Of a DNA stretch of 64,000 nt, positions 1 through 51,237 are shown piece by piece (position 1 is the stretch's first letter; every line of letters starts with the position of its first letter). The position numbers and the translations under genes are program-made. The stretch comes from Eledone cirrhosa (lineage: Eukaryota): NCBI GenBank assembly GCA_964016885.1, contig OZ024745.1:51088001-51152000 (forward strand), given 5' to 3'. The notes beneath the pieces were generated by a model. It did no database searches. It saw only the letters and a program-made list of their open reading frames with translations, and had not been told where the DNA came from.

Positions 1-1607
1 ATATATATATATATATATAAGTAATATATATATATATATATATATATAAGTGTATATATATATATATATATTTATATATAAGTATATATATATATATATA
101 TAAGTATATATATATAAGTATATATAGATAAGTATATATAGATAAGTATATATATATATATATATATATATATATAAGTATATATATATATATATATATA
201 TATATATATATATAAGTATATATATATATATATATATATATATATATATATAAGTATATATATATAAGTATATATATATAAGTATATATATATATAAGTA
301 TATATATATATAAGTATATATATATAAGTATATATATAAGTATATATATATATATATATATAAGTATATATAAGTATATATATAAGTATATATATATATA
401 TATATATATATATATATATATAAGTATATATAATATATATATATATATATAAGTATATATATATATATATATATATATATAAGTATATATATATATATAT
501 ATATAAGTATATATATATATATAAGTATATATATATATATATATATATATATAAGTATATATATATATATATATATAAGTATATATATATATATATATAT
601 ATATATAAGTATATATATATATATATATATATATATATATATATATTATATATATATATATATATATATATATATAAGTGTATATATATATATATATATA
701 TATATATATATAAGTGTATATATATATATATATATATATAAGTATATATATATATATATATATATATAAGTATATATGTATATATATATATATATATATA
801 TATATATAAGTATATATATATATATATATATATATAAGTATATATATGTATATATAAGTATATATATAAGTATATATATATATAAGTATATATATATATA
901 TATATATATAAGTATATATATATATATATATATATATAAGTATATATATATAAGTATATATAGATAAGTATATATAGATAAGTATATATAGATAAGTATA
1001 TATATATATATAAGTATATATACATATATATATATATATATATATATATAAGTATATATATATATATATATATATATAAGTATATATAATATATATAAGT
1101 ATATATATATATATATATATATATATATATATATAAGTATATATATATATATATATAAGTATATATATATATATATATATATATATAAGTATATATATAT
1201 ATATATATAAGTATATATATATATATAAGTATATATATATATATATATATATATATATATAAGTATATATATATATATATATATATAAGTATATATATAT
1301 ATATATATATATATATAAGTATATATATATATATATATATATATATATATATATATATATATATATATATATATAAGTGTATATATATATATATATATAT
1401 ATATAATATATATATATATAAGTGTATATATATATATATATATATATATAAGTATATATATATATATATATTAGAAAGTGAGGTTTTTTTTTACAAAATG
1501 AAAAATAACCGAGGTGTCCTACACGAGTGGAAGTATAAAGAAAAAGGGATGAAATCGAAAATGCAACTGAAGTCTTATTTTTTTTAAATATATATATTTA
1601 TTTGGTT

Positions 1608-1645
1608 CCTTTACCGGTTTCGCAGTTCTTCTGCTTTTCAAAAGG
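1608..1645 (-). ncRNA. Minimal hammerhead motif (U3:A8), mirror copy
   Basis: Reverse complement of 1698-1735. Confidence 0.75.
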
Positions 1646-1697
1646 TGAGTTGAGATGGAGGGTCTGTGAAAAACCACAGACCCTCCATCTCAACTCA

Positions 1698-1735
1698 CCT
1701 TTTGAAAAGCAGAAGAACTGCGAAACCGGTAAAGG
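1698..1735 (+). ncRNA. Minimal hammerhead ribozyme motif, U3:A8 core variant
   Basis: CCTT-TTGAAAA-GCAG(aagaa)CTGC-GAAA-CCGG-TA-AAGG: stem I, core, stem II, palindromic loop III (ACCGGT), UA cleavage site. Confidence 0.75.
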
Positions 1736-4700
1736 AACCAAATAAATATATATATTTTAAAAAAAATAAGACTTCAGTTGCATTTTCGATTTCATCCCTT
1801 TTTCTTTATATATATATATATATATAAGTATATATGTATATATATATATATATATATATATATATATAAGTATATATATATATATATATATATATATAAG
1901 TATATATATGTATATATAAGTATATATATAAGTATATATATATATAAGTATATATATATATATATATATAAGTATATATATATATATATATATATATAAG
2001 TATATATATATAAGTATATATAGATAAGTATATATAGATAAGTATATATAGATAAGTATATATATATATATAAGTATATATACATATATATATATATATA
2101 TATATATATATAAGTATATATATATATATATATATATATATAAGTATATATATATATATAAGTATATATATATTATATATAAGTATATATATATATATAT
2201 ATATATATATATAAGTATATATATATATATTAATATATATAAGTATATATATATATATATATATATATATAAGTGTATATATATTATATATATATTTATA
2301 TATAAGTATATATATATATATATATATAAGTATATATATATAAGTATATATAGATAAGTATATATAGATAAGTATATATATATATATATATATAAGTATA
2401 TATATATATATATATATATATATATATATATATATATAATAAGTATATATATATAAGTATATATATATAAGTATATATATATATAAGTATATATATATAT
2501 AAGTATATATATATAAGTATATATATAAGTATATATATATATATATATATAAGTATATATAAGTATATATATAAGTATATATATATATATATATATATAT
2601 ATATATATATATAAGTATATATATATATATATATATATATATAAGTATATATATATATATATATATATATATATAAGTATATATATATATATATATATAT
2701 ATATATAAGTATATATATATATATATATATATATATATATATATATGTATATATAAGTATATATATATAAGTATATATATAAGTATATATATATATATAA
2801 GTATATATAAGTATATATATAAGTATATTTATATATATATATATATATATATATATATATATAAGTATATATATATATAAGTATATATATATATATATAA
2901 GTATATATATATATATATATATAAGTATATATATATATATATATATATAAGTATATATATATATATATATAAGTATATATATATATATAAGTATATATAT
3001 ATATATATATATATAAGTATATATATATAAATATATAAGTATATATATATATATATATATATAAGTTATATATTATATATATATATAAGTATATATATGT
3101 ATATATAAGTATATATATAAGTATATATATATAAGTATATATATATATATATATATAAGTATATATATATATATATAAGTATATATATATATTATATATA
3201 TATATACAAGTATTTATATATATATATTTATATATATATATATATATATATATATATATATATATAAGTATATATATATATATATATATATATATATATA
3301 TATATATATATAAGTATATATATATATATATAAGTATATATATATATGTATATATAAGTATATATATATATATATAAGTATATTATATATATAAGTATAT
3401 ATATATGTATATATAAGTATATATATATATATATAAGTATATATATATATGTATATATAAGTATATATATATATATATATAAGTATATATATATATATAT
3501 ATATAAGTATATATATATATATATATATATATATATAAGTATATATATATAAGTATATATATAAGTATATATATATATATAAGTATATATATATAAGTAT
3601 ATATATAAGTATATATATATATATAAGTATATATAAGTATATATATACGTATATATATAAGTATATATATATATATAAGTATATATAAGTATATATATAA
3701 GTATATATATAAGTATATATATATATATAAGTATATATAAGTATATATATAAGTATATATATATATATATATATATATATATAACTATATATATATATAT
3801 ATAAGTATTATATATATATATATATAAGTATATATATATATATATATATATATATATAAGTATATATATATATATATATATATATAAGTATATATATATA
3901 TATATATAAGTATATATATATATATATATAAGTATATATATATAAGTATATATATATATATATATATATAAGTATATATATATATATAAGTATATATATA
4001 TATATAGATATATATATATATATATATAAGTATATATATATATATAAGTATATATATATATATATATATATATATATATATATATATATATAAGTATATA
4101 TATATATATATATAAGTATATATATATATATATATATATATATATATAAGTATATATATATATATAATATATATATAAGTATATATATATATATATATAT
4201 ATATATATATATATAAGTGTATATATATATATATATATATATATAAGTGTATATATATATATATATATATATATAAGTATATATATATATATATATATAT
4301 ATAAGTATATATGTATATATATATATATATATATATATATATATATAAGTATATATATATATATATATATATATATAAGTATATATATGTATATATAAGT
4401 ATATATATAAGTATATATATATATAAGTATATATATATATATATATATATAAGTATATATATATATATATATAAGTATATATATATAAGTATATATAGAT
4501 AAGTATATATAGATAAGTATATATAGATAAGTATATATATATATATAAGTATATATACATATATATATATATATATATATATATATATAAGTATATATAT
4601 ATATATATATATATATAAGTATATATATATATATAAGTATATATATATATATATATATATAAGTATATATATATATATATATATATATAAGTATATATAT

Positions 4701-49382: not shown

Positions 49383-50547
49383 ATTGGTTATGTGTATACG
49401 TGAGTTTTGCGTCTGTGTGAGTATGCGGTTTCGTAAGTATGTAGGGTGTGTGTATATGTGTACTTTGTGTTTTGGTTGACGTACGTCCGCGAACATATGT
49501 GTTTTTACATGTAGGTATGTGTGTGCGCGCGTTATAGTTATTTACGTATTTATGTGTATATTTATATATATTATGTTACAGGCACACACATATATATAAT
49601 TTTATATATATTTTATATAATTTATATAATTTTATATATAATTTATATAATTTTATATATAATTTTATATATAATTTTATATATAATTTTATATATAATT
49701 TATATAATTTTATATATAATTTATATAATTTTATATATAATTTTATATATAATTTTATATATAATTTATATAATTTTATATATATTTTTATGTCTATTTG
49801 GCGTATACGTTTGTATGATTGCGGGTACAGGCGTGTGTGGGTTCTGTATGTGCGTGTTTTTTTTTCTTTTGTGTAAGTGCTCGTATTTGCATACCCATGT
49901 CGAGTGTTTTGCGTATGCTTGTGTACGTACGTATATGGATGCGTGTATGTGCATATTTATTTTGAATTACCTCTGTATTTTATTTACTTTATTCTTAACT
50001 CTGAAGCCGAGAATTATTCGGTTTCCTAAATAGAATTTTAGTCTACGACTTCAGTTATACCATTTACGTGGTTTTGTCTTTGCGTGTTATTGTTCTCACC
50101 GCCCCACACCATGACGTATTATCTTCGTTTTTTCCGTTCATTGCCAGAGAACGTCTCCATGACCACCTAATAGAATATTAGTCTACGACTTCATTTATAC
50201 CATAAACGTGGTTTTGTCTTTGCGTGTAATTGTTTTCACCGCACCAAATAATCACGTATTATCTTCGTTTTTTCCCTTTGCCAGGGAACGTTTCCACGAA
50301 CCAAAGTATCATCTTCGTGTCTTCCTTCGGTTGCAACGTTTTTTGAAATATTTACTTCTGCGTTCACAGATTGACTTTTTTAGTTTCAGAAGATCCCGTT
50401 AAGGGTGAAAGCAGCGATTCTTTGCTTAAACTTTAATCTGTTATTTTAATAAATATTTGCTCTACGGTTCTTATATATCTGATATATATTTATCCTTATA
50501 GAGCCCTCTTTGGATTTTAGTCTTCAAATTTATTATTATTATTACTA
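49383..50547 (+). mobile_element. Family D element, single orientation, with full tail
   Basis: Homologous to the 35123-35848 arm plus tail. HHR-like motif at 50382-50432 and an internal minisatellite. Confidence 0.8.
49585..49790. repeat. TATATAATTT(TA) 10-12 bp minisatellite
   Basis: Tandem units directly visible. Confidence 0.9.
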
Positions 50548-50725
50548 TCGGTAGAGGGTCGGACACCATGATTTGACGCATAGAGTTACAGGCCCTTGCC
50601 ATTCTGAGTTCAAATCCCGCCGAGGTTAACTTTGCCTTTCATCCTTACGGGGTCGATAAAATAAAGTACCAGTAATGCACTGGGTAATTGCTGGCCTTGT
50701 GCCTAAAGTAGAAATAATTATTACT
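50547..50725 (+). mobile_element. Meta/MESC-domain tRNA-derived SINE
   Basis: B-box GAGTTCAAATCC, then CTTTGCCTTTCATCCTTACGGGGTCGATAAAATAAAGTACCAG and an ATTATT tail. Confidence 0.75.
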
Positions 50726-50790
50726 ATATATATATATATATATATATATATATATATATATATATATATATATATATATATATATATATA

Positions 50791-51237
50791 TACATACACG
50801 GGTGTGTATGATTGTGTATAGAAGATTATATTAATAAAAGGAATTCCAAATTTGTCTGATTTACTCGTTTTATTTACAATCCTTTAAAATGTATAATGAT
50901 ATTAGAATGAAATAGTATGGTAGAATATTAAACGTTAAGTGTTAATTGAACAAGTACTTTCATGCTTTCGCAATCTTCAGGTTCATATTCTCTGGTGACA
51001 GTCAAGTTTGCAATTTTCACATGTGGAAATTCAACTGTGGAAATTCAACAGTTGAAAATTGCAAACTTGACTGTCACCACAGAATATGAACCTGAAGATT
51101 CCGAAAGCATGAAAGTACTTGTTCAATTAACACTTAACATTTAAATTCTACCATACTATTTCATTCTAATACCATTATACATTTTAAAGGATTGTAAATA
51201 AAACGAGTAAATCAGACAAAGTTGAAATTCCTTTTAT
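50791..51237. mobile_element. Fold-back element, family G
   Basis: Arms 50834-51019 and ~51053-51237, spacer with duplicated TGTGGAAATTCAAC, ~43-bp left tail, TA flanks. Confidence 0.8.
50947..50985 (-). ncRNA. Canonical minimal hammerhead motif
   Basis: TGAAC-CTGAAGA-T-TGC(gaaa)GCA-T-GAAA-GTAC-TT-GTTCA. The mirror at 51087-51125 (+) has one stem II mismatch. Confidence 0.8.

Follow-up and report, generated by a model that had tools for sequence, protein, structure and literature searches.

The 64-kb window analyzed here (64,000 nt of Eledone cirrhosa contig OZ024745.1, positions 51,088,001 to 51,152,000; coordinates below are window positions) is animal-type DNA of 27% G+C, with an interrupted (TA)n array of 12.9 kb (1-12876), a 200-N gap, numerous shorter TA runs, and four Penelope-like elements (PLEs) that bear open reading frames (ORFs), termed A, B, P and N. 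The same window holds eight small loci, assigned to families C to G, in which two element 3′ ends point outward from a shared centre and one of the two carries an additional terminal segment, or tail. As judged from their sequence, these two-ended loci are ORF-less footprints of PLEs that consist of the pseudo-long terminal repeat (pLTR) alone. They are given here with two single-armed copies from families D and F:

1472..1810, C: tail of 62 nt (1472-1533), left arm (antisense) to 1668, loop of 6 nt (1669-1674), right arm (sense) 1675-1810 ending in TATA; predicted minimal hammerhead cores of the U3-A8 type at 1702 (+) and 1641 (−).
6174..6512, second copy of C: 99% identical, centre unchanged, within a 4.7-kb duplication of the TA array and not an independent insertion.
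31673..31873, F: 75-nt tail with a CTCTAC...GAG motif, stem of 52 bp; loop of 4 nt (31805-31808) lying immediately 5′ of a GAAAC half-core; a 7-nt duplication close to the right end and a TA overlap of 2 nt.
34126..35851, D1: 85-nt tail, left arm 997 nt, right arm 729 nt, arms 99% complementary, 183-nt centre unpaired; hammerhead-like cores of the CAGAAGA type at 34280 (−) and 35782 (+).
36184..36620, E: tail of 33 nt; TGATCA (36417-36422) forms the centre of a perfect palindrome; right end with a 7-nt TA overlap; predicted U3-A8 cores, with GCAA replacing GAAA, at 36459 (+) and 36378 (−).
38556..38641, D2: antisense arm of 32 nt from the tip of the tail, sense arm of 54 nt that stops at the inner site; no microhomology where the two meet.
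43381..44023, D3: left arm 298 nt, about 3 nt of filler, right arm 342 nt.
50793..51237, G: tail of 41 nt with a 7-bp hairpin at its end, 94% complementarity between the arms, 14-bp tandem repeat at the centre; predicted CTGAAGA hammerhead at 50980 (−), 3-nt TA overlap.
38438..38521 (+), F2: nearly tail-only copy of F between two TA runs, starting ~9 nt upstream of the F inner end and sharing its outer end.
49385..50545 (+), D4: family D copy with one arm, tailed; 1161 nt, two 140-bp subrepeats, no ORF above 72 codons; used as the reference for the family.

A preliminary description of this DNA had credited the eight loci with one common architecture. All eight are present with outward-pointing 3′ ends, the left arm tailed and the right arm not, although D2 lacks the hairpin, and D1 and D3 the fold-back centre, that were attributed to them. 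The description had also counted eight loci in five families, and here too a qualification is required. The flanks of the two C copies are 96, 94, 99 and 89% identical (4/4 blocks tested), compared to 85-89% in five control blocks; the C flanks are thus duplicated over 4.7 kb, and the eight loci represent seven events. C and E are, moreover, related (z 5.5 in pairwise alignment, exceeding all 100 shuffles), and the five families are therefore not five fully independent lineages. The evidence base is seven events in one window, with C (both copies), E, F and G each known from one independent locus. All seven are bordered by TA runs, and in all seven an inverted 5′-truncated copy lies beside the unit. 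The left arm is antisense and is the one that carries the tail (33-85 nt, 7/7 events, counted past the last base shared by the arms); the right arm is sense, has no tail and runs into (TA)n. Whole two-ended elements measure 86-1726 nt, with both arms pLTR-only, and the longest methionine-initiated ORFs in elements of families C to G comprise 0-110 codons. Whole-arm identity is 94-99% across C, F, E, G and D1, and the longest stems with no more than two mismatches reach 90, 52, 175 and 30 bp in C, F, E and G, compared to maxima of 11-15 bp in shuffled sequence (60 shuffles each). The position of the tail on the left in 7/7 two-ended events is itself a strand bias (two-sided P = 0.016); among single-armed tailed copies, D4, F2 and B′ (the latter a relative of B) point right (3/4) and Q points left, a difference from the two-ended events that is nominally significant in a post hoc Fisher test (P = 0.024).

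The link to Penelope made in the preliminary description is supported by predicted hammerhead ribozymes and, in D and F, by 3′ ends of Hydra-clade type. A hammerhead descriptor, tuned after the motifs had been seen and applied to both strands of the whole window, returned 13 hits, all in PLE-type 3′ ends and all in sense orientation: 4/4 arms of C, 2/2 of E, 1/2 of G, 4/5 long arms of D, plus B′ and P. At most 1/2000 shuffles scored per arm, and a stricter descriptor returned nine hits, one of them outside any PLE end. The U3-A8 core in C and E is one described for minimal hammerheads of PLEs (Cervera and De la Pena 2014, PMC4209133; this and all other papers are cited from selected passages), and the U-flanked helix II in D, G and P resembles that of many Hydra rows in File S2 of Craig 2021 (PMC8557442). 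A tail motif, CTCTA...GAG, is common to D, F and Q, and its four distinct sites in the window are these three tails and an unrelated one at 61933; by eye, the motif also occurs in Hydra-2_Amil and, less exactly, in Hydra-2_Ajap (Craig 2021). Insofar as published sequences can be compared by eye, D and F show both the 45-50 nt spacing described below and the tail motif, G shows the hammerhead shape only, and the spacing of C and E fails the Hydra geometry. The 3′-end geometry would place D and F in the Hydra clade; the clade of C, E and G is uncertain. The centre of F probably lies at the expected site of hammerhead helix II. As a side observation, the predicted core CAGAAGA (U4A) is found in two unrelated families, D and B′ (35782, 50387, 51288), and that of B′ aligns with the canonical CTGACGA core of B.

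Family D provides the clearest view of how the two arms are put together. Its outer end is common to 4/4 tailed arms and its inner end to 3/3 right arms, while the three two-ended loci have three different centres; constant ends combined with three centres argue against a palindrome that moves as a unit, and support the earlier suggestion of a per-insertion product. In D1, the left arm extends 183 nt beyond the start of the right arm, leaving no fold-back centre, and the two arms carry identical subfamily variants. D2 has no hairpin (stem of 8 bp versus a shuffle mean of 8.9), and its arms map without overlap to separate parts of D4 (50513-50544 and 50403-50456). D3 likewise has no fold-back centre: its right arm extends upstream by 283 nt more than the left arm, contains sequence absent from the latter, lacks one 140-bp subrepeat and differs in subrepeat type. 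The D3 arms differ at 11/155 shared sites, compared to only 4/156 between the left arm and D4, and private substitutions number 8 versus 1 (P = 0.04), or 9 versus 2 with indels counted (P = 0.07). Since D2 has no hairpin and the D3 arms derive from different templates, folding back of a single strand is not a general explanation. Family D contains two 140-bp tandem subrepeats (50029-50299, 34376-34631), of which the D3 right arm has a single one. In family F, the outer end is constant in 2/2 copies; F2, which resembles a solo tail, covers the interval bounded by the two start sites proposed below.

The tail-less inner end is defined by position. The distance from the hammerhead GAAA to this end is 50, 50 and 45 nt in the D loci and ~46 nt in F (53 minus the 7-nt duplication), and the 3′ end of P, a frameshifted ORF-bearing PLE, lies 50 nt past GAAA, equal to the D spacing. 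Comparable positions recur among six Hydra consensi of Craig 2021 File S7 (PMC8557442), counted by eye: in three, TA forms the end, 49-61 nt past GAAA; the other three pass TATAT 40-48 nt past GAAA and run on for a further 54-81 nt, which in two cases includes a GCTCT...GAGC hairpin resembling that of D. Among 24 Hydra families, hammerhead and end are 87-130 nt apart in 12, 152-210 nt in 11 and 425 nt in one, a tally that omits Penelope-18_HMa (hammerhead listed near the 5′ end) and the antisense row of 13_HM; the two corresponding distances in D are 95 and 180 nt. At the inner end, arm and (TA)n overlap by 4, 2, 7, 3 and 4 nt in C, F, E, G and D, respectively. The sum of 20 exceeds the 5.0 expected for random breakpoints (P = 0.0013, five families; D3, of the same family as D1, and the second C copy, with a point mutation, were omitted), and inclusion of A (3 nt) and B (4 nt) gives P = 0.0017 for seven families, in keeping with the earlier suggestion that the second end is primed by TA microhomology. 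The ORF-bearing A, B and P, which are present in a single orientation, have TA motifs at their ends as well, suggesting that reverse transcriptase (RT) truly starts there.

These features are probably best explained by twin initiation, in which synthesis begins from both cut target strands at two RT start sites already known for PLEs, followed by end-joining. Each locus would represent one strongly 5′-truncated insertion of a (TA)n-targeting PLE, cut down to its pLTR. The GIY-YIG endonuclease would cut both (TA)n strands, as it does in vitro in another PLE (Frangieh 2024, PMC11167929). One of the exposed 3′-OH groups would prime complementary DNA (cDNA) at the outer start and so produce the tailed arm; its counterpart on the opposite strand would prime at the inner start and produce the tail-less arm. 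The inner site would be set by position, 45-50 nt past the hammerhead GAAA in D, F and P and just 5′ of the conserved tail hairpin motif, where the short TA motif observed could pair with the target primer. Both cDNAs would stop early and be joined head to head, either bluntly or with filler (D2, D3), or else through a natural hairpin or palindrome of the pLTR to yield the perfect hairpins of C, E, F and G; the junctions themselves are observed in the sequence. Two fixed ends are likewise observed, and their identity with two RT starts may be proposed by analogy to PAc, the Anolis Poseidon element, for which both strands were cut and extended in vitro, RT started at two sites bounding the tail, and the enzyme was modelled as a dimer (Frangieh 2024, PMC11167929). 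Twin priming is compatible with all seven events. More tentatively, a dimeric enzyme carrying two RNAs could prime asymmetrically, from the tail tip on one strand and from the target-paired TA motif on the other, in which case D2 and D3 would be direct traces of the process, and the TA motif and tail hairpin its cis signal; if true, such asymmetric priming would explain both the inverted-repeat-one-tail structure and the microsatellite bias in one step.

Several observations weigh against twin initiation, or against the assignments on which it draws. The GAAA-to-end distances in C, E and G (89, 141 and 127 nt) lie beyond the Hydra range, and the overlap of any single family is weak evidence (P = 0.02-0.14). 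Longer TA runs in the C arm (1746-1755) and in the D tail stay unused; therefore, position picks the site, and TA pairing at most assists. In the passages of Frangieh 2024 (PMC11167929) covered, the RT starts of the Anolis element are not homologous to its target. The arm 5′ ends lie within ~0-25 nt of each other in 4/7 events, for which plain fold-back is simpler, and D3 could represent two successive insertions. Folding of 15 tails and hammerhead stretches was otherwise unremarkable, with only the G tail beating all 200 shuffles (z −4.4). The hammerhead descriptor, besides its post hoc tuning, missed F (half-core only), one G arm and one D arm, and the predicted cores carry changes (U4A in D, GCAA in E). 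An Rfam scan of 12800-64000 (E up to 10; C lies outside this range) placed no hammerhead among the matches listed (150 of 212), none of which reached the gathering score. Finally, pairwise alignment of 12 3′-end regions gave no z above 2.5 when C-G were compared with A, B, P and N as candidate parents; in the window, the only terminus shared with an ORF-bearing PLE is that of B′, with B.

The preliminary description had left open whether twin priming or fold-back produced the loci, and the former fits all seven events. In the latter, a singly primed cDNA would start at the tail and copy itself back, and the far (TA)n end would capture an internal TA motif. This would account for one tail per locus and for the TA overlap at the second end, and it suits the small loops of C, E and F (6, 0 and 4 nt), the 96-98% complementarity of their arms, and the 99% complementary arms of D1, which have all subfamily variants in common. 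However, it is impossible for D2, where the arms do not overlap, and for D3, where the right arm is longer and the variants differ, and A, B and P, each in a single orientation, likewise terminate on TA motifs; we therefore regard it as an unlikely general route. Fold-back may nonetheless have produced the perfect hairpins, and D1, whatever the origin of D2 and D3, and for C, E, F and G the product is the same as that of twin cDNAs joined through a natural hairpin. Our estimates for these explanations accordingly overlap, as the routes can mix. Loss of one of two original tails, if the internal TA motif had recombined with the flanking (TA)n or slippage had occurred between them, would also leave a TA overlap at the junction, and long unstable arrays do flank the elements; yet exactly one tail is present in 7/7 events, 3/3 D right arms end at one site despite longer TA runs in the tail, and a tail is already known as the product of two RT starts (Frangieh 2024, PMC11167929), which together make such loss improbable.

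In comparison to twin initiation, the remaining explanations address what the loci are. The preliminary description had considered palindromic ribozyme elements that are non-autonomous yet independently mobile as single units, for which the absence of ORFs, the hammerhead motifs on both strands, the single independent loci of C, E, F and G, and the existence of PLE-derived non-autonomous retrozymes would speak. The sole repeated centre, that of C, proved to be a segmental duplication, however, the three D loci have three centres, single-armed D and F copies occur in the window, and retrozymes are head-to-tail tandems, so that this proposal has little plausibility left; the palindrome is likely to be formed anew in each insertion, without a mobile unit. 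Identical centres would in any case also be expected without a mobile palindrome, if the pLTR contains a natural hairpin or the 5′ end of the RNA is fixed. A retrozyme tandem was itself rejected as a candidate, the arms being head to head and not head-to-tail units. Very long TA arrays, the 200-N gap and near-identical duplications in the window could invite suspicion of a fold-back sequencing or assembly artefact, but the array interruptions hold one polarity across the elements where a mirror would reverse it (TAAG on both flanks and no CTTA, 5/5 loci tested), the arms differ by 1-7%, the ends are family-specific, and D2 has no mirror. The unmirrored flanks therefore exclude a read artefact for practical purposes, leaving a very small probability for this explanation. 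TA-targeting DNA transposons of the miniature inverted-repeat (MITE) or foldback type would share the inverted repeats, TA context and lack of an ORF. The terminal inverted repeats that the preliminary description had named as their signature are not found, with matches at just 5-10/20 terminal positions in 7/7 elements, and single-armed 5′-truncated copies and hammerheads also speak against such transposons, rendering them highly improbable.

An inverted, 5′-truncated copy with one tail is the standard picture of insertions by endonuclease-containing PLEs (Craig 2021, PMC8557442; Arkhipova 2013, PMC3846280; Goubert 2022), and the present loci share with them the inverted copy joined at its 5′ end, the tail at one end, microhomology-type 5′ junctions and palindromes at pLTR 5′ ends. 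They differ in that both arms are pLTR-only and in tails of 33-85 nt, compared to the 30-40 nt usually cited. The Hydra-clade elements Hydra-1_Obim and Penelope-13_HM resemble them in (TA)n targeting, in U before and after helix II (D, G and P), in a GAAA-to-TA-motif distance of 40-60 nt and in the tail hairpin motif (D, F and Q), whereas the lack of an attached ORF, the longer spacing in C, E and G and the U4A of D set the window loci apart. Penelope-13_HM is listed with a 5′-truncated inverted copy (Craig 2021, PMC8557442); its hammerhead lies ~101 nt from both ends, so the consensus seems to lack the one-tail asymmetry. PLE remnants of Schistosoma carry minimal type I hammerheads on opposite strands 100-700 bp apart (Cervera and De la Pena 2014, PMC4209133), and share with our loci the U3-A8 core variant, a palindromic helix III and an unpaired base before helix II; the passages covered note hammerhead pairs and leave ends, tails and junctions undescribed. 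In PAc, the starts lack homology to the target and do not differ between strands; here, by contrast, the inner start overlaps the target by 2-7 nt, with one start per strand at each locus. Non-LTR retrozymes, which are non-coding, hammerhead-bearing and pLTR-related, occur as head-to-tail tandems (Cervera 2020, PMC7229834; Li 2026, 10.64898/2026.07.22.740005), unlike the head-to-head pairs in this window. The layout of D2 equals that of twin priming by the long interspersed element LINE-1. There, the second target strand primes internally to create an inversion, and the arms are largely non-overlapping with variable internal sites. The loci described here, by comparison, have a fixed internal site and mostly overlapping arms, which needs two RNAs, strand displacement or fold-back.

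The formation of tandem or inverted one-tail PLE structures and their microsatellite targeting have been named as unresolved (Craig 2021, PMC8557442), and the steps after initiation were left unvalidated in vitro (Frangieh 2024, PMC11167929). With both junctions lying within a few hundred bases, each copy described here records a start site per strand and the joining of cDNAs. Such minimal insertions offer a cheap genome-wide test of the mechanism, and the intact Hydra-clade ORF in the window offers one in vitro. They may also be mistaken for MITEs or microRNA hairpins during annotation; E, for example, received a sub-threshold microRNA precursor score in the Rfam scan. The loci are a minimal instance of a known PLE insertion structure, and the mechanistic clue they offer is modest: an inverted copy with one tail is known, and what hints at novelty is the positioned TA motif at the tail-less end together with two independently primed arms. 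In the literature covered, which leaves older PLE papers and some supplements outside its scope, no report was found of a tail-less end that falls on a positioned TA motif, and none of junctions indicating that the two arms were primed independently; Evgen'ev and Arkhipova 2005 as well as Arkhipova 2006 and the supplements of Frangieh 2024 and Li 2026 possibly bear on both.

The ORF-bearing PLEs and the remaining single-armed copies in the window are as follows:

12877..23989 (−), A: Hydra clade, partial tandem with a unit at 12877-18937; intact ORF of ~812 aa at 16341-18782 with RWR, DKT and CxCx5C motifs; 3′ end overlapping (TA)n by ATA.
24168..31487 (+), B: partial tandem; ORF of 1208 aa at 27344-30970 with a Cx4CxxC linker and an Asn-rich insert; 3′ end without a tail, overlapping (TA)n by ATAT.
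44097..46420 (−), P: frameshifted, Hydra-type, 34-40% identical to A; predicted hammerhead at 44162.
57855..60040, N: decayed; RT motif YLDD, C-terminal GIY-YIG region and cysteine linker recognized by eye; 5′ end at a TA run; presumably Neptune-like.
46523..46635 (−), Q: tailed 3′ end with one arm; its tail bears the CTCTAC...GAG motif, and a GAAAC half-core is present.
51286..51532 (+), B′: solo tailed pLTR, relative of B.

Among five ORFs compared to Pfam, N alone matched RVT_1, below the cut-off; no family was found for A, B or one piece of P, and the other P piece gave a weak unrelated match. With Pfam recognition near nil, the clade calls therefore rest on motifs and on published descriptions, such as the RWK, DKT and CxCx5C motifs of Hydra-clade proteins (Craig 2021, PMC8557442). 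A homologue search with the ORF of A returned 103 matches, of which one of three named is from Octopus sinensis (23% coverage), and the ORF of P resembles Hydra-1_Obim by eye. The 3′ region of A is unusually long (3.4 kb) and microsatellite-rich, and by eye A also shows a hammerhead-like motif, its helix II very long, near 13090-13215 (−). B′ runs past the TA motif at which B stops and continues 56 nt further into the beginning of the ORF (77% identity, 26 aa), as described for pLTR tails (Arkhipova 2013, PMC3846280). The long asparagine-rich insert of B, in the N-terminal part of its ORF (27983-28567, 24168-24440), recalls the N-rich inserts of Adineta vaga Penelopes (Arkhipova 2013, PMC3846280), yet lies upstream of the RT. 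The (TA)n interruptions are polar, reading TAAGTA close to C and F, TAAGCA around D1, and lie on one strand throughout (1-12876, 31872-34125, 35852-36183); their source may be slippage, unequal exchange or the addition of repeats by RT. A short interspersed repeat, which we take to be an octopus short interspersed element (SINE), is present in several copies, at 41398-41702, 42445-42571, 50546-50723 and 61319-61437, and one of these abuts the tail end of D4 with a TA overlap.

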